The notes: generated by a model not told the origin, from the sequence alone. Positions 8,919 through 50,428 are shown, numbered from the stretch's first letter. The stretch is DNA of 64,000 nucleotides from an uncultured SAR86 cluster bacterium (GCA_902628085.1 CACOLO010000005.1:35368-99367); one strand, 5' to 3'. Translations and numbers: made by a program.

Positions 8919-10066
8919 ATGAACTAAAGAAAATATTAATGGTTTTTGGTACTAGACCGGAAGCAATAAAAATGGCTCCTCTTTTTCATGAGTTAAATAA
9001 GCACAAATCTAATTTTAAGGTAAGTGTTTGTGTGACTGGTCAACACAAAGAGATGCTTGATCAAGTATTGAGTTCATTTCAAATTATTCCTGACTTTAAT
9101 CTGAATTTAATGAAAGATAGTCAAGACCTTTTTGATCTTTCTTCTTCGACGCTACTTGCTATGCGAGATGTCATAAAAAAAGAAAATCCAACATTGATTT
9201 TAGTTCACGGAGATACTACTACTTCTAATATTGCAGCAACTTCTTCGTTTTATCTAGATATCCCAATAGGACACGTTGAGGCCGGCTTGAGAACTTGTGA
9301 TCTAAAATCTCCATTTCCTGAGGAATTTAATAGACAGTTGATAAGCATGATTGCAGATTTTCATTTTGCGCCTACTGAAAAAAGTCGCAGTAATCTTGAG
9401 AAAGAAGGCGTCAAAGCAAATTCAATATTTGTAACAGGTAATACAGTCATAGATGCTTTATTTTGGATCCTAAACAAAATTTCAAATGATAAAAAACTTG
9501 AACAAGACATAATAAATAATATAAATAAATATTTAAATTTTGATTGGCTCGATGATAACTTTATATTAATTACTGGACATAGAAGAGAGAGTTTTGGAGA
9601 GGGTTTTGAAAATATTTGTAAGGCAATAAAAGAATTATCTGAAAAATATAAAAATATTAAGTTTGTTTATCCTGTTCACCTTAATCCAAATGTTCAAAAA
9701 CCTGTTAAAAAAATATTATCTAATTTAGATAATGTTTATTTAATTGATCCACTTGAATATGAATCTTTTGTATATTTAATGAAAGCATCGTATCTAATTT
9801 TGACTGATAGTGGTGGCATTCAAGAGGAAGCACCAAGCCTTGGCAAGCCTGTGATAGTCATGAGAAATAGCACTGAAAGGCCAGAGGCTGTTGAAGCTGG
9901 AACAGTAAAATTGGCTGGAAATAAAAAAGAGACTATCGTTGAGTCTATTTCTAATCTAATTGATAATGCTGAAGAGTATAACAAGATGGCAAAATCATAT
10001 AATCCATACGGAGACGGCAAATCTTCTCAAAATATCTCTGAAATTTTAAAGAGAATTGAGTTATGA
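8915..10066 (+). CDS. wecB: UDP-N-acetylglucosamine 2-epimerase (non-hydrolysing)
   Basis: 383 aa. It carries FGTRPEAIKMAP, HVEAGLRT and DSGGIQEEAPSLGKPV, which are family signatures. Confidence 0.9.
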   Translation: MNELKKILMVFGTRPEAIKMAPLFHELNKHKSNFKVSVCVTGQHKEMLDQVLSSFQIIPDFNLNLMKDSQDLFDLSSSTLLAMRDVIKKENPTLILVHGDTTTSNIAATSSFYLDIPIGHVEAGLRTCDLKSPFPEEFNRQLISMIADFHFAPTEKSRSNLEKEGVKANSIFVTGNTVIDALFWILNKISNDKKLEQDIINNINKYLNFDWLDDNFILITGHRRESFGEGFENICKAIKELSEKYKNIKFVYPVHLNPNVQKPVKKILSNLDNVYLIDPLEYESFVYLMKASYLILTDSGGIQEEAPSLGKPVIVMRNSTERPEAVEAGTVKLAGNKKETIVESISNLIDNAEEYNKMAKSYNPYGDGKSSQNISEILKRIEL

Positions 10067-24394: not shown

Positions 24395-24471
24395 TGGTCG
24401 GGATGGCCGGATTTGAACCGACGACCACTACACCCCCAGTGTAGTGCGCTACCAGACTGCGCTACATCCCG
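24395..24471 (-). tRNA. tRNA-Pro (anticodon GGG), CCA encoded
   Basis: The reverse complement reads CGGGATGTAGCGCAGTCTGGTAGCGCACTACACTGGGGGTGTAGTGGTCGTCGGTTCAAATCCGGCCATCCCGACCA. The acceptor stem is CGGGATG/CATCCCG. The anticodon stem is CTACA/TGTAG with loop CTGGGGG. The T-loop is GGTTCAAATCC. Confidence 0.9.
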
Positions 24472-44598: not shown

Positions 44599-46164
44599 AT
44601 GAATAAACTATCAGTTAACAATAAAGCTATTGATACCATTTTAGTTCTTGATTTTGGATCACAATATACTCAATTAATTGCCAGAAGAGTAAGAGAAAGT
44701 AACGTTTATTCAGAAATTCTTCCATGGGACATTAATGAAGAAAAAATAAGGGAGCTTAATCCAAAAGGTGTTATTTTATCAGGAGGCCCAAACTCAGTTA
44801 CTGAAAGTTTTACACCAAGAGTTCCACAAGTTATTTTTGATCTAACAGTTCCATTACTAGGGATTTGCTATGGTATGCAAACTCTAGCTGAACAAATGGG
44901 AGGACACGTTGTGTCTGTTGATCAAAAGGAGTTTGGTCATTCATCTCTTGATGTTGTCTCAAATTCAAAAATATTTGAAGGCATTAATAAAAAATTAAAT
45001 GTTTGGATGAGTCATGGTGATCAAGTACAAGATTTACCTGATAATTTTAAGCTTATAGCATCAACCTCAACCGCTCCAATAGCTGTTATGGAACACGAAT
45101 CTTTGCCAATGTTTGGAATTCAATTTCATCCAGAGGTAACTCATACTGAGCAGGGTAAAAAAATATTGGATAATTTTATTTTGAATATATGTCATGCTAA
45201 AACTGAATGGAACATTGATGACGTAATTTCACAAAGAATTCACGATATAAAAGAAAAAGTCAAAAATGATAAGGTTCTTCTTGGTTTATCTGGTGGAGTT
45301 GATTCTTCTGTAACAGCAACATTACTTCATAAAGCAATAGGTAAGAATCTAACTTGTGTTTTTGTAGATAATGGACTATTAAGAAAAGGTGAAGCAGATG
45401 ACGTAATGCAAACCTTCAAAGAAAATATGAGTCTAAATGTTATTAAATCAGATAGTGAGGAGATTTTTCTCAGGCATCTAAAAAATATCGAAGATCCTGA
45501 ACAAAAAAGAAAAATTATTGGCAGAACTTTCGTAGATGTTTTTGACGCAGAAGCTATAAAATTGAAAGATATCAAATTTCTTGCTCAAGGAACAATTTAT
45601 CCAGATGTAATTGAATCATCTGGAAGCGAATCAAAAGAAGCGCGAACCATAAAATCACATCATAATGTTGGAGGCCTTCCAGATGAAATGAAGCTAGATT
45701 TAGTTGAGCCCTTAAGAGATCTCTTTAAAGACGAGGTAAGAAAAATGGGTAAAGAGCTTGGATTGCCTCAAGAAATGTTAGACAGACATCCGTTTCCTGG
45801 TCCTGGTCTGGGAGTAAGAATAATTGGTGAAATAACAAAAGAAAAAACAAAAATCCTAAAAGAGGCAGACCATATTTTCATACAAGAGCTTATTAAGGCT
45901 GATTTGTATGATCAAGTCTCTCAAGCTTTTGCAGTTCTTTTGCCAGTGAAATCTGTTGGAGTTGTTGGTGATGAGAGGCGATATGCAGAAGTAATTGGTT
46001 TAAGGGCCGTTGAAACTGTAGATTTCATGACTGCTAAGTGGGCGCATTTACCTTATGATTTTCTTGAACTTGTATCAAATAGAATAGTTAATGAGATAGA
46101 AGATGTCAGTAGAGTGGTTTATGACATATCAAGCAAACCTCCTGCTACCATAGAATGGGAATGA
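44599..46164 (+). CDS. guaA: GMP synthase (glutamine-hydrolysing)
   Basis: 521 aa with GICYGMQ, the PP-loop SGGVDSS and the C-terminus KPPATIEWE*. Confidence 0.95.
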
Positions 46165-46562
46165 AGAAAAGAAAAGTTTTTCAACATAACCAATTTAAAT
46201 GTGTTGTTGCATTTTGGAAAGGTAAATATCAGGGAGTAGCAAGACTCTCAAATGAAGTTGTTTTTAAACTTATAGGTATTGATCTTGAAGATGTGGAGAT
46301 TAAACTCAAAGACCAAATAGAAAAAAATGGACAAGAAATTGTTTATGATCACTTAAAAAAGGTTCATCAAGAACTTCTAAAATCAAACAATGTTAAGAAT
46401 TATCAAGATATTGAAATAACTTTATCTAAGAAAAATCACAGAACAGCACATTGTTTTAGATGCAGAGGCCAACTAGACAATCATTATAATCACGAATGTA
46501 ATGCATGTGGATGGATTCTTTGTGTTTGTGGTGCGTGTGGTTGTAGTTATATGAAATTTTAA
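46161..46562 (+). CDS. Hypothetical protein with a C-terminal Cys-rich zinc-ribbon-like module
   Basis: About 133 aa. The ATG at 46161 overlaps the guaA TGA (ATGA); the track start is 46155. The C-terminus is [32 protein letters not shown]. No family recognised. Confidence 0.5.
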
Positions 46563-47998
46563 TGAAAACTACTGATTGGATTTTAAAAAAATGTAAAGAA
46601 GAGTTCTTTGAAATTGAGAATAGAACTGACTTAACAGATGATCAAAAAATATCTCAATTAATAACAGTAACTTCTAGTATTTGTGCAGGAGTAGCAGTTC
46701 AACCTATCCCATTTGGTGATATATTTATTCTCACACCGATTCAGGCATATCTAGGAACTAGAATAGCAAATGTAAGAGGTATTCCAATTTCTCAGAATAC
46801 TGCTTTTCAAACTGTAAAAGAGATATCGGGGATGATAGGACTTGGACTATTAGCACAACAGTTAGTAATAGGTGCCTATAAATTCATTCCTTATTGGGGA
46901 AGTATCACCTCAATACCTGTAGTTTTTGGAATGTCACTGGCGATTGGAAAAGTCTTGGATATATATTTCACAAAAAAATCTCTTGGTCAGCATATCGATC
47001 CTGAATATCTTAAGAGTGTGTTCAACAAAGCAAAAGAAGAAGGTAAAAGAAGAGCAAAAGAAAGTGATGCTCAAGAAACTTTTAAAAAATATTCAGAAGA
47101 GTTTAGTAATAAAGATTTACCAAATAAAGGAATTGAATTTTTAAGAACAAATTTTGATGATCTTATTATTATTGCCTCCCTTCAAAATATACAGAAAGGT
47201 CTTAATCTCAATCAAAATGATGAAATAGTTCTCAGTGCATTCAGTAGGTATTCTGGAAGAACTTTTGATCTAGATAGCACAAGAGAATATTTAAATTCAA
47301 TGAGTGATGATCAAATAGTTGGTGTTGTATCGAATGTGAAGGGCATTCTGCATGAAATGGAATTTGTAAGAATTGAAAATTCAGATGGAGATCAAATATC
47401 AGCAGCACTTTTCCCCGAAACAAATCATAAAGGATTTGATGTATTGATGACAGATAAAGAACTTGGAACAAGTTGGGAGATACAACTAAAAACAACTGAA
47501 AATTCAGAATATGTTAGGGAATGGATTCAAAAATATCCTGACGGTGAAATTTTAGTATCAGAAGAAATTGCAAATGAAATGGGTCTTAATTCTTCTGGTT
47601 TAAGCAATGAAGATTTAACATTAAAGGTTGAGTCTTTTGTAGATAAGTTATTAAATGAGAAAAATAACACAGATTTTTTATATTTGATTCCAACACTGTC
47701 TTTATTATCAATATCTATCTGCATTATTGAATTATTCAAAAGATATAAGACTAATGAAATTAGTTATGAAGAATTTAAAGAACTATCAATGAGAGTCTCA
47801 GGAATAAAAGTAGGTAAATTTGCGATATTAATTACGGTACTAAGCATACCTGTGATAAATGTAGTTGTAGGTTCGGCGTTGGTTGCAAGAGTTATATATT
47901 CACTAATTACCATCTCTTCAGAAAGAAGTTTTAAAGATAGTGAAATGTCTGAAAATATATATTCAACTAGTTTAAGAATGATTAGAGATAAAAGATAA
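46562..47998 (+). CDS. Hypothetical membrane protein: DUF697-like N-terminal domain, Mrr-cat/PD-(D/E)xK-like central domain, two C-terminal TM helices
   Basis: 478 aa with a TAATG overlap onto the upstream gene. VQPIPFGDIFILTPIQAYLGTRIANVRG is DUF697-like. GILHEMEF...HKGFDVLMTD...WEIQLKT follows the E..D..QxK nuclease-fold pattern. The TM helices are FLYLIPTLSLLSISICIIELF and FAILITVLSIPVINVVVGSALV. Confidence 0.55.
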   Translation: MKTTDWILKKCKEEFFEIENRTDLTDDQKISQLITVTSSICAGVAVQPIPFGDIFILTPIQAYLGTRIANVRGIPISQNTAFQTVKEISGMIGLGLLAQQLVIGAYKFIPYWGSITSIPVVFGMSLAIGKVLDIYFTKKSLGQHIDPEYLKSVFNKAKEEGKRRAKESDAQETFKKYSEEFSNKDLPNKGIEFLRTNFDDLIIIASLQNIQKGLNLNQNDEIVLSAFSRYSGRTFDLDSTREYLNSMSDDQIVGVVSNVKGILHEMEFVRIENSDGDQISAALFPETNHKGFDVLMTDKELGTSWEIQLKTTENSEYVREWIQKYPDGEILVSEEIANEMGLNSSGLSNEDLTLKVESFVDKLLNEKNNTDFLYLIPTLSLLSISICIIELFKRYKTNEISYEEFKELSMRVSGIKVGKFAILITVLSIPVINVVVGSALVARVIYSLITISSERSFKDSEMSENIYSTSLRMIRDKR

Positions 47999-48003
47999 TT
48001 AGT

Positions 48004-48108
48004 ATGCAAAGTTTGACAAAGTGGCAAAACACAAAAAAGACACTCGGAAACACAGTCATAGCAGGGGTTTCAGAGGTGGTGTTTTGTGCAACTATTGAGT
48101 GGGAATAA
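48004..48108 (+). pseudogene. Degraded duplicate of the guaA 3' end (integration-scar-like remnant)
   Basis: The translation is MQSLTKWQNTKKTLGNTVIAGVSEVVFCATIEWE*. The genuine GuaA tail is ..[48 protein letters not shown] is locally higher than the surroundings. Confidence 0.55.
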
Positions 48109-48116
48109 ATATTAAA

Positions 48117-49373
48117 ATGAAGTTTATTGGTTGGAGAATGGTATTTACTGGTCTGACCCTTGAATTTACTGTAGTTGGTTTTCTTTTTTATAGCTTTCCT
48201 GTTATCTGGCCTTACCTAATATCAGAATTAGGCATGACCGAAAGTCAACTTGGAATGGTTTCTGCATTTTATTTTATTCCTGTGGCTGTTTTGGCAATTA
48301 TTGTAGGCCGTGCTCTTGATAAGTATTCTGTTAAAAACTTTATGATGATTGGAGCCGTAATTTATGCTGTTGGACTTTTCTCTCTAAGTTTCATAAATTC
48401 TTATTGGTCGCTCCTCACGATTTATCTTACTATTCTTGCCTTGGGATCAATTATGATGGGAAATTTAGCTGTATCTAAATTAATCGCAAATTGGTTTGAT
48501 AAAAATGCCGGCAAAGCACTTGGCATTGCTGCAATTGGTATTTCCTTTTCGGGAGTTATTCTTCCTTTAATTGTTGATCCTCTTCTTGAATTAGTTGGTT
48601 GGAGAAATGTTTATGTAATCTTTGCAAGTATAGTATTTTTCATTATTTTGCCTCTTGTTTTTTTTACTGTTATTGATGATCCAAAAACTATTAATCAAGT
48701 CAAAGATGGAGAAGAAAAAGATGATAAAGAAGAATCTGTACCTGAGGAAATGACTGCGAAGGATCTTTTATCTAAAAAAGTTTTTTGGATAATATCTTTA
48801 GCATTTGCCTTTCAATTTCTTTCCATGATGGGTGTACTCGCATTCTTACCAATTCATGCAAGCAAAATGGGATTAGATGAAACTTGGGATTTCTTGAGTT
48901 TACCTATCAAACAATACGTTTTTGCATATTCTTTAGCTGCATTTGGCGGGGTCCTAGGAAAAATAATATTTGGATATTTAATGGACATGATGAAAGTTGC
49001 ACATCCCCCAATGATTGCAATGTTGTTTCAAGCAATCGGAATTTTTGGAATTACATATTTCTATGAACCAAGTATATTTCTTTTAAGTACATTCATATTT
49101 GGTTTGGGTTTTGGTGCTGCAACGCCTCTTATGACTGCATGTTACTTAAGAATTTTTGGAGCACATAATCTTGGAAAAGCCAGAGGTATGTCATCTCCCA
49201 TCATTTCACCGCTTCAACCAATTGGCATTCTTATAACAAGCATCCTAATAGGTTTTCAAGATACCTACTTCGCAGCTTTTAATATTATGGGATGCTTTGC
49301 TTTACTTGCAGTAATTGTGGCAAGCCAAATTCAAGAACCTGAAAAATTTGATCTATCTACCTTGAAGCTATGA
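48117..49373 (+). CDS. MFS transporter
   Basis: About 418 aa with 12 predicted TM segments and a central charged loop (KDGEEKDDKEE). I prefer the ATG at 48117 to the track GTG at 48099, which lies inside the guaA remnant. Confidence 0.8.
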   Translation: MKFIGWRMVFTGLTLEFTVVGFLFYSFPVIWPYLISELGMTESQLGMVSAFYFIPVAVLAIIVGRALDKYSVKNFMMIGAVIYAVGLFSLSFINSYWSLLTIYLTILALGSIMMGNLAVSKLIANWFDKNAGKALGIAAIGISFSGVILPLIVDPLLELVGWRNVYVIFASIVFFIILPLVFFTVIDDPKTINQVKDGEEKDDKEESVPEEMTAKDLLSKKVFWIISLAFAFQFLSMMGVLAFLPIHASKMGLDETWDFLSLPIKQYVFAYSLAAFGGVLGKIIFGYLMDMMKVAHPPMIAMLFQAIGIFGITYFYEPSIFLLSTFIFGLGFGAATPLMTACYLRIFGAHNLGKARGMSSPIISPLQPIGILITSILIGFQDTYFAAFNIMGCFALLAVIVASQIQEPEKFDLSTLKL

Positions 49374-49567
49374 CATCCTATTAAGGTTAGTTTAAAAAAG
49401 AAACCAATTTTATATGTTTAAATGATATATTGAGAAAAATAAAATTTAATTGTTTTGATATATAAATTATATCTTGTGACATAAATTTGTCGCATCATTT
49501 TGAGAAGATCGTATCAAACGAATCTCAAAAATGTTCTATTATTGAATGGGAACAGTTTTAAAAAATC

Positions 49568-50428
49568 ATGAATAAAAAAATATTGATTACAGGAGCAAGT
49601 GGCTTAATTGGAAAAAAAATCTTTCTAAACCTAATAGCTCAAGGACATGAAGTTACCGCACTGTCAAAAAATATTTATAAAGAAGATAATTTTGTAAGTA
49701 TTGACTTATTGAATCTTAACAATTTAAAAAAATACTTTAATGGAAAAGAATATGATATTTTAATTCATTGTGCAGCTGTGATTGAGCCTAGTAAGTTAAT
49801 AGGTGAATCTATTGTTTCAGCCCAAAACTCTTTAATTACAAAGAATTTATTTCAAGCATCACTTTCCTTAAAAAAATCACCATCTTGGATATTTTTAAGT
49901 TCAGTTTCAGTTTACGGTAACATCGATCATGAAGAATGTATCGAAATTAATGATACACCAACACCGATCAGTGATTACGGTAAAGGAAAGTTACATGACG
50001 AAAAGTATCTCATTAAAAATTGTAATGAACTTCATATTTTAAGATTAGCTCCAGTATTTGATGATGAACATCTTTCTAATATAAAAAAAAGAGTTTACTT
50101 ACCAGGAACAAATTTTAAGTTAAAAATCTCACCATCTCCAAGATACACTTTATGCAGTATTAAAACTATAATCTCAAAAATTACAAATATCATTGATTGT
50201 TCAGAGGGAAAGTATCTTTATCATGTTGGAGATCAATCACCATATAAAAAAAATGAAATCGCTAAAAATTTTCCTGGTATCAATTTAAATATTAAGAGAG
50301 AATTTTTTGAGTACTTTATCAATATGATTCCAATTAAATATAAAATATTTAAAAATCTTAAGTGGCTAATTCAAAAATTAGCATTTTCAAATGTGTACAT
50401 TATTGGAAGAAAAAAAATTGAAAGCTAG
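49568..50428 (+). CDS. NAD-dependent epimerase/dehydratase (extended SDR) family protein
   Basis: 286 aa with ILITGASGLIGKKI and a YGKGK catalytic Y-x3-K. Confidence 0.7.
   Translation: MNKKILITGASGLIGKKIFLNLIAQGHEVTALSKNIYKEDNFVSIDLLNLNNLKKYFNGKEYDILIHCAAVIEPSKLIGESIVSAQNSLITKNLFQASLSLKKSPSWIFLSSVSVYGNIDHEECIEINDTPTPISDYGKGKLHDEKYLIKNCNELHILRLAPVFDDEHLSNIKKRVYLPGTNFKLKISPSPRYTLCSIKTIISKITNIIDCSEGKYLYHVGDQSPYKKNEIAKNFPGINLNIKREFFEYFINMIPIKYKIFKNLKWLIQKLAFSNVYIIGRKKIES

Follow-up and report, generated by a model that had tools for sequence, protein, structure and literature searches.

Background

Why does a 105-nt frame that ends like GMP synthase stand 1.9 kb downstream of an intact guaA gene? 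The frame occupies positions 48004..48108 of a 64,000-nt stretch of DNA from an uncultured SAR86 cluster bacterium (GCA_902628085.1, CACOLO010000005.1:35368-99367; the whole stretch is called the window hereafter). An earlier, sequence-only reading explained the frame as the native 3′ end of guaA, displaced and decaying after an island had integrated and brought a replacement end. In the surface ocean, few uncultured bacteria are more abundant than SAR86, and the gain and swapping of genes in their streamlined genomes are poorly understood.

In this study, the window, the guaA loci of related genomes, and metagenome and viral contigs were compared computationally. The comparison makes it highly probable that the 105-nt stretch is the right attachment site (attR) of a small integrative cassette, composed of an element-derived arm (the P arm of a family that we call F1) and a 14-nt core that is shared with guaA. 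Our literature search found no paper linking SAR86 with integration at guaA.

Results

The 105-nt stretch shares a 14-nt core with guaA

The gene that anchors the locus is guaA (44599..46164, plus strand; GMP synthase, 521 aa; Pfam GATase 1.9e-48 and GMP_synt_C 7.6e-43). Re-translation agreed with the sequence-only reading at both ends: GuaA terminates in ...KPPATIEWE*, and 48004..48108 translates to MQSLTKWQNTKKTLGNTVIAGVSEVVFCATIEWE, which likewise ends in ATIEWE. The higher G+C content ascribed to the stretch was also found (0.41 vs 0.24–0.27 on either side). The likeness claimed upstream of ATIEWE (LTKW against MTAKW, NTVI against NRIV and GVSEVVF against DVSRVVY) is at chance level by both DNA and protein alignment. 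With the cores removed, local DNA alignment to the guaA 3′ end scored 15, compared with 15.6 ± 2.5 for shuffled sequences, a fraction of 0.61 of which reached that score; the 34-aa peptide compared with GuaA after removal of ATIEWE gave p of about 0.11 against shuffles. BLASTP of the whole peptide against GuaA gave E = 0.006, with an alignment resting largely on ATIEWE, and a Pfam search of the peptide returned nothing. The opening ATG is peculiar to the window, and related copies lack the ATG or carry in-frame stops; therefore, the 34-aa frame is not a gene.

The sequence-only reading saw low nucleotide identity apart from TGGGAAT at both stops. The shared stretch is larger: a 14-nt core, ACTATTGAGTGGGA, at 48091..48104 (the right, attR, core) corresponds to ACCATAGAATGGGA at 46147..46160 (the left, attL, core) at 11 of 14 positions. 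Both cores are on the plus strand and encode T-I-E-W-E, the left one as codons of guaA itself. The right core matches the consensus perfectly. The left core differs from it at three positions, one of which (GAA for GAG, in the overlap) falls inside the octamer GAGTGGGA, and no other SAR86 guaA gene scanned has a terminal core that diverges as far from it. This octamer, which the guaA end matches at seven of eight positions, has been defined by experiment as the core that GIsul2 uses at the 3′ end of guaA (PMC9376610), and SaPIs in Staphylococcus integrate at a site downstream of guaA (PMC11217367); guaA is thus a known attachment target, as the sequence-only reading stated. In the whole window there is a single perfect copy of the 14-mer. 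Allowing up to two mismatches raises the count to four (0.6 expected), which none of 100 shuffles reached.

Upstream of the right core lies the F1 P arm (48008..48090, plus strand), with the repeat motif TTTGACAAAG at 48012..48021 and the conserved blocks ACACTCGGAAACACAGTCA and GGGGTTTCAGAGGTGGTGTTTTGTGCA. It is 85–92.5% identical to arms that close other SAR86 cassettes, and is kept at this level in at least 10 other SAR86 species behind unrelated cargo (F1 arms with different cargo occur in L008, L011, L013, L016, L023, L026, L029, L043 and L048; loci numbered from L001 on are guaA loci of relatives, or loci on metagenome or viral contigs). The GuaA proteins of species sharing the F1 arm are about 80–85% identical to that of the window. 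Sister arm families have the same layout and no visible likeness to GuaA upstream of the core. The idea of a decayed native end fails at this point: the 14-nt core alone is common to guaA, and the other ~85 nt are element DNA. The ATAA that follows the right core (48105..48108) belongs to the downstream side.

The two cores coincide with the edges of an integrase-less cassette (46161..48108, plus strand), which comprises cargo, the right-hand arm and the core, and which has no left (P′) arm.

Genuine second guaA ends do occur in the lineage, as exemplified by L033, and are unlike the stretch in the window. In L033 (9555-10898), the guaA 3′ end is truly duplicated, and the copy (96/119 nt identical) closes a cassette in place of an arm; the 330-aa gene of this cassette resembles, by eye, a GMP reductase or IMP dehydrogenase relative. 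In L024 (9540-9955), the last 390 nt of guaA are tandemly duplicated. The first copy ends in ...PPATID* with a mutated core, ACTATTGATTAGGC, and the second is a 129-aa open reading frame (ORF) with the normal ATIEWE* end; the duplication is either real or an assembly error. The nearest relative by GuaA, SAR86A JH611156 (L001; 97% identity over residues 1-495), has a guaA shortened to 495 aa (...LELAEQK*) and fused, at 9470-9590, to an F4 arm plus core, with the MFS gene directly behind. The loss of its last 30 codons is either a real deletion disabling GMP synthase or a chimeric join in the 2012 metagenome assembly.

Cassette arrays downstream of guaA in SAR86

The set of relatives, scanned with one genome per species, comprised 48 SAR86 and 32 non-SAR86 guaA loci. 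One to four extra ...TIEWE* ends were present downstream of guaA in about 30 of the 48 SAR86 loci and in none of the 32 others, in which non-SAR86 Gammaproteobacteria show the guaA end alone and L060 gave no match. At the nucleotide level, 22 of 43 loci carried extra cores with at most one mismatch, 31 copies in all, every one on the plus strand and downstream of guaA; at the same threshold, no core was found in 375 kb upstream of guaA or on the minus strand of these 43 loci. In total, 28 of 45 SAR86 loci contained one to four cassettes of 0.14–2.5 kb behind guaA, all on the guaA strand and each closed by an arm and a core. The 45 cassettes delimited by cores measured 139–2501 bp and contained zero to four ORFs each, mostly in the direction of guaA.

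Cassette cargo was highly varied and seldom common to two genomes. By Pfam, it included an HTH protein, a GIY-YIG-like protein, a DUF3800 protein and a bacterial PH-domain protein; by sequence appearance, it included membrane proteins, methyltransferases, dehydrogenases and an acyltransferase. Some cassettes are 'empty', with an arm and a core of 139–221 bp together and no ORF (L040 10878-11016 and L289 107-485), and in L034 a decayed F1 arm directly follows guaA.

The comparison with relatives that had been proposed as a check revealed empty sites. In L006 and L025 the guaA core runs straight into the MFS gene; in L003, L004 and L019 its direct neighbour is a flavodoxin-like gene. The sequence-only reading was right in taking the 1.9-kb insert for foreign cargo that integrated site-specifically into the last guaA codons, and the empty-site relatives that it predicted exist. 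The insert is nevertheless not the lone decayed or minimal island that the sequence-only reading proposed, being one unit of a cassette array that is widespread in SAR86.

The docking site itself is unusually uniform. Across the last five codons of 44 related SAR86 guaA genes (the window and L002–L048), the first core Glu codon was GAG in 42 genes (vs 34% GAG in the gene body), the Ile codon was ATT in 40 (58% elsewhere) and the Thr codon was ACT in 33 (44% elsewhere); the window guaA, with ACC ATA GAA, is an outlier. Selection and repeated recombination are possible causes of this synonymous uniformity, which is suggestive only among genomes that are related.

Arm architecture and the crossover point

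The P arms follow one plan over ~90 nt, namely, two 11-bp-phased tandem repeats, a short inverted repeat (e.g. CCCTT-N7-AAGGG), a spacer of ~15 nt and the core. The repeats define the families: TTTGACAAAG in F1, TGACACA in F2, AGTTACAAA in F3, AGTTACACG in F4, ACTTGTAAA in F5 and ATGACAAAC in F6. Many cassettes also open with a P′ arm of ~130 nt, which contains an inverted repeat and two pairs of the same family repeat. The P and P′ arms of one cassette had a mean of 3.5 8-mers in common, compared with 0.57 across a junction. The repeat type is matched within a cassette; therefore, each cassette appears to be a unit, the ends of which would form a complete attP in a circle.

A conserved pseudo-core, ACTATTGAAAGTCATAAGTTCA (with variants including ACTATTGCGA), closes the P′ arms in several families and repeats the left half of the core. 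In class (i) P′ arms it lies about 120 nt after the core (e.g. L011, L013, L026, L116 and L117).

The identity of the four nucleotides that follow GGGA, among them the guaA stop codon, depends on the downstream partner and is independent of the upstream arm; the crossover is thereby placed within the core. With the crossover in ACTATTGAGTGGGA, the contribution of an element to guaA is limited to one base, the last of the final Glu codon, plus the stop. In this narrow sense the element does supply a replacement end, as had been suggested; no larger guaA end is brought in. Many junctions read ACTATT-GAGTGGG-AATAGT, with inverted half-sites around a 7-bp overlap, and this form was found at no fewer than 120 (>= 120) metagenome loci, for which the search pattern was selective. 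Inverted half-sites around a short overlap are the usual layout of a tyrosine recombinase core. The sites thus resemble a lambda-type attP: the core is flanked left and right by arm repeats, each element has a single specificity, and inverted core sites surround a short overlap, of 7 bp where lambda-type sites have 6–8 bp.

DNA folding of three arm families on both strands revealed no attC-like hairpin (z from -2.2 to +1.5, no long paired stem), and an Rfam scan of three related SAR86 loci with F1 arms returned no family and one chance miRNA match.

Integrases and possible mobile forms in metagenomes

The sequence-only reading had noted that no integrase remains in the insert, and none was found there or in the whole window. 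Metagenomes were scanned for the core followed by RTAGT, which yielded at least 120 loci with G+C contents from 0.26 to 0.65, many of them with arrays of up to six cores (L341). A first scan for the tyrosine-recombinase motif H.LRH[ST] missed a family with Y-x-L-R-H, which was revealed by clustering all array ORFs. The proteins of this arm-linked family are 400–458 aa long, contain a SAM-like domain and match Phage_integrase in Pfam (48.5 bits) and the integrase family phrog_1 in PHROG (2e-27). Their genes lie about 130–240 nt past the core, behind the P′ arm (L331, L259, L269, L262, L276, L353, L335, L281 and L323); in L261, another ORF stands between the core and the integrase. The integrases are 24–37% identical to one another and the arm repeats change from element to element, a pattern that fits co-evolving specificities.

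Three contigs connect these integrases with the cassettes. L331 has, in order, an F1 arm, the core, a P′ arm with three copies of TTTGACAAA and the integrase, which on sequence grounds is a direct link between the F1 arm of the window and an integrase. L335 holds a complete 5.5-kb element between two cores behind guaA. L259 (MDTE01043232.1) is 4,305 nt long, its first and last 99 nt are identical, and it carries the P arm, core and P′ arm together. Identical contig ends are the usual sign of a circular assembly, and this overlap suggests that L259 is probably a circle of ~4.2 kb. It also encodes an integrase, a weak Rep-like ORF, a DUF6626 protein (found in L335 too) and a 189-aa protein consisting only of a recombinase catalytic domain.

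Such catalytic-domain-only tyrosine recombinases of 189-190 aa (Phage_integrase up to 119 bits) are located near the large integrase in L281, L323, L269, L262, L259 and L316. The large integrase beside them is full-length or truncated, and L335 has a serine resolvase in their place.

L274 and L356, two SAR86-like contigs, have integrase genes shortened to the first 220 and 145 codons, respectively, with methyltransferase cargo behind them. These truncated genes therefore point to a route from integrase-bearing elements to integrase-less cassettes. A 152-aa protein with an N-terminal DUF6538 and a hydrophobic tail, found after F1-type P′ arms in L043 (11067-11525) and L046 (9723-10181), was considered as a further integrase fragment and rejected; it has no significant similarity to integrases, occurs in these two loci and belongs to a large family of small stand-alone proteins (146-152 aa, 1205 clusters in metagenomes).

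The same core is occupied in other hosts by integrases or prophage-like regions (L165, L170, L188, L189 and L213). L114, L115 and L165 (IMG/VR, G+C 0.28) have phage-like structural-gene regions at the core behind the guaA of a very A+T-rich host; the phage-like genes were judged by eye from L115 only, and L165 has a tyrosine integrase about 2.7 kb from the core. Otherwise, the bare 14-mer in viral contigs gave mostly chance matches in phage genes and a few integrase-bearing regions adjoining guaA, in other hosts.

Cargo of the cassette in the window

The cassette carries two genes on the plus strand. Cargo gene 1 (46161..46562) encodes 133 aa from the ATG at 46161, or 135 aa from 46155, with a Cys-rich C-terminus. 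Its ATG overlaps the guaA stop as ATGA, which would permit coupled translation. Seven homologues of 88–191 aa were found, and the protein had no Pfam, PADLOC or PHROG match. Cargo gene 2 (46562..47998) encodes 478 aa. In L117 and L118, the called homologue of gene 1 overlaps a 478-aa gene by 4 nt; in L119 the 4-nt overlap is with an ORF cut by the contig end, and in L122 the homologue directly precedes such an end-cut ORF. These neighbourhoods argue that the cargo is a conserved two-gene pair.

The central domain of the 478-aa protein (residues 240-366) matches the candidate defence protein PDC-M72B in PADLOC (3.5e-19). Its N-terminus has a Pfam DUF697 match at 1e-3, below the family cut-off, and its C-terminal region is helical. 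The 328 homologues occur in varied neighbourhoods, which are often mobile or defence-like. The pair is therefore a candidate phage defence system by virtue of this similarity of the central domain. A PHROG search of both cargo proteins gave no match, and an exact-sequence look-up of the 478-aa protein found no record. The AlphaFold model (mean pLDDT 64.5) was not good enough for a fold search: most of the central domain scored below 60, and long stretches fell under 50. Three residues of the central domain, K260, H264 and E265, are invariant, and four more (D293, Q308, L309 and K310) vary little; together they may mark a catalytic site.

Parts of the module recur elsewhere. The left junction GGGA|ATGAAGAAAAG is found in L122 after a canonical core behind another guaA. 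A 478-aa gene with 94% identity also stands in L116. There it follows an F1-type P′ arm, the small gene is missing, and the guaA is of the ...DISGKPP... type, which is seen in more distant SAR86 clades and in other taxa. This nearly identical copy behind a different type of guaA indicates that the module moved between lineages using the same core.

A promoter and terminator scan between guaA and the MFS gene gave no more sites than in shuffled sequences. Together with the ATGA overlap, this suggests that the cargo would be expressed from the guaA transcript.

The downstream flank

The sequence-only reading took the MFS transporter gene (48117..49373, plus strand; Pfam MFS_1 1.9e-46) for the native flank. 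It is followed, at 49470..49551 on the plus strand, by a stretch recognised by eye as a degraded F2-type arm, TGTGACATAAATTTGTCGCA..., with a degenerate core, ATTATTGAATGGGA (49538..49551); it resembles F2 arms (TATGACACAAATGTGACACAC...GTTCTACTATTGAGTGGGA), and the blastn arm scan of the window reported no match there. Next is an NAD-dependent epimerase-family gene (49568..50428, plus strand; Pfam Epimerase 2.1e-20). In L001, the MFS gene is followed by a second one, MFS2, with a short core relic between them, and the epimerase gene is absent. Because a degraded F2-type arm follows it and the epimerase is missing from SAR86A, the MFS gene is probably itself an older cassette. The epimerase-family gene is possibly, and tentatively, a further old cassette, and the array of the window probably extends past the region that was flagged.

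Discussion

The sequences themselves show a tandem cassette array anchored at the last five guaA codons, in SAR86 and in contigs of other G+C content, together with its arm families, the agreement of arm types inside a cassette, the empty sites, integrases that are linked to arms and a contig that looks circular. Elements of this kind consist, in order, of core, P′ arm, tyrosine integrase, cargo and P arm. From these observations a mechanism can be proposed, in which the circle of an element, with P arm, core and P′ arm forming attP, would recombine with the guaA core or with any core in the array, and repeated integration would stack cassettes one after another. Some cassettes keep only the N-terminal part of the integrase gene, and most therefore appear to be derivatives without an integrase. 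The family-specific repeats of the arms are presumably the binding sites of the integrase N-terminal domain, and integrase-less cassettes could move in trans via a matching integrase. The cassette in the window is probably locked, because it has no integrase, no P′ arm and a left core that differs from its right core at three of 14 positions; it would be fixed in place without efficient excision, and its perfect distal core would stay open to new insertions.

Several points weigh against this account. The window and the 48 SAR86 loci, the latter up to a distance of 8 kb from guaA, yielded neither an integrase nor a remnant of one, and activity in trans is a prediction from sequence. No excised circle of the window's cassette was seen, and this cassette, P′-less and with a divergent left core, may never move again. 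A scan of viral contigs for the F1 arm gave no matches, and the F3 and F4 repeats matched there only without a core nearby. A tandem duplication would give the same assembly as a circle in L259. Some of the shuffling of cassettes could be due to homologous recombination between arrays, at their conserved arms.

This last process, taken as the whole explanation, would make the locus a replacement-type island exchanged at conserved flanks, with the cores as passive relics. The arms are long and conserved enough for such exchange, the absence of integrases from all 48 SAR86 species loci is in its favour, and the window and L116 switch partners after the 478-aa gene exactly at a shared TTTGACAAA. 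We nevertheless regard it as unlikely: metagenomes contain integrase-bearing elements and an apparently circular one, with matching arms, the breakpoints fall precisely at the core, the linkage of the four nucleotides to the downstream partner fits a site-specific crossover, and the synonymous sites of the guaA core are unusually uniform. For the displaced native guaA end, decaying after an island brought its replacement, the evidence consists of the common ATIEWE plus stop, the BLASTP value and the existence of real guaA-end duplicates in L033 (96/119 nt) and L024. It is very unlikely, since a decaying pseudo-end would not be conserved at 85–92% in at least 10 species behind unrelated cargo; moreover, the similarity is at chance level once the core is removed, and the sister arm families share the layout with no visible GuaA similarity upstream of the core.

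An integron-like attC cluster, in which IntI would act on folded single-stranded attC hairpins, agrees with the co-oriented small cassettes of mostly one to three genes, the diverse cargo and the lineage-specific sites. We give it hardly any credence: the folded arms lack attC-like hairpins, a search for tyrosine-recombinase motifs of any kind, which covered the window and the 48 SAR86 loci up to 8 kb from guaA, found none and thus no intI candidate, the sites consist of tandem direct repeats and an inverted-repeat core around GAGTGGG, and the integrases found with them carry a SAM-like domain and are encoded within the elements. Finally, the stretch could be a regulatory element or small RNA (a leader or terminator) for the MFS gene, with ATIEWE as a coincidence. 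It does lie directly upstream of the MFS start, and its plus strand folds slightly better than shuffled sequences (z = -2.2). This is barely conceivable given that the same arm precedes many unrelated sequences in other genomes, that no Rfam family was found in the three related F1-arm loci (the window not among them), that there is no terminator-like site and that a perfect 14-nt core has a near-zero chance expectation.

The attR interpretation thus stands as the best account of the 105-nt stretch, and a broader proposal can be attached to it with more reserve. SAR86, and probably other marine lineages as judged from the wide G+C range of the metagenome contigs, may possess a guaA-anchored, integron-like platform with lambda-type sites, in which many integrase-less cassettes with complete arm-core sites of several specificities would be shuffled in trans by the integrases of rare mini-elements of 4–6 kb, at least one of them apparently circular, and the guaA end would be kept uniform at synonymous positions so that the docking site stays intact; we rate this possibility at somewhat under an even chance. 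In the literature that could be searched, no description of such a platform was found. If true, the guaA platform would add a second general means by which streamlined ocean bacteria capture gene cassettes. The 14-nt core, the arm families and the candidate integrases make one flexible region of SAR86 directly testable. The cores can be used as anchors for reading cassette diversity, including defence cargo, from metagenomes, and the integrase–arm pairs are candidates for orthogonal recombination tools. The locus also carries a caution, in that a short resemblance to a gene end at the protein level can stem from an attachment core on element DNA instead of a decayed gene copy.

Among known systems, SaPIs share the guaA anchor and a tyrosine integrase with the SAR86 elements, and the core of SaPIbov1 may span the same IEWE and stop codons. 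They belong to a different phylum, and their integrase together with replication and interference or packaging genes has no counterpart in the insert of the window, which consists of two genes with no PHROG match, without a recognised phage-satellite gene set and without an integrase. GIsul2 has the same target gene, the same 8-nt core (GAGTGGGA) and direct core repeats flanking the insert, and its integrase mobilises the integrase-less CR2-sul2 unit as well, from one such site to another (PMC9376610). A unit bounded by att sites and moved in trans is thus a feature of GIsul2 that may apply to SAR86 as well. Unlike this single 15-kb resistance island, the SAR86 cassettes are small, many and in tandem, with arms of ~90-130 nt and several specificities. 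The repeated core and the empty-site variants are present in SAR86, and a GIsul2-family integrase within the element is not: tblastn of the SAR86-type integrase against a plasmid collection in which GIsul2 copies are reported gave no GIsul2-type match at E <= 1e-5, and the two integrases are not closely related. The integrase adjoining guaA in the non-SAR86 locus L078 has Arm-DNA-bind_3 and Phage_int_M, both of which are missing from the SAR86-type integrase.

Chromosomal integrons are alike in their co-oriented small cassettes, very diverse cargo, lineage-specific sites and new cassettes beside the anchor. They differ in that neither an intI candidate adjoining the array nor attC hairpins were found in SAR86, the sites are built like lambda attP, and the SAR86-type integrases travel with some of the elements.

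By analogy, the closest concept is that of the tycheposons, or additive islands, of Prochlorococcus, in which successive integrations at tRNA sites push older elements inward and leave partial att sites and broken integrases (bioRxiv 10.1101/2020.12.28.424599). The seed in SAR86 is the end of the protein-coding guaA and not a tRNA or tmRNA, to which the array is not adjacent (the only tRNA in the window is at 24395..24471), and the units are mostly 0.3–2.5 kb without an integrase. Both systems occur in streamlined marine bacteria and show repeated integration at a single site, partial att copies between units, fragmented integrases, degenerate remnants, and niche and defence cargo, and the tandem units (up to four cassettes; L341) and degenerate integrases (L274 and L356) described here correspond to what the additive-island model leads one to expect.

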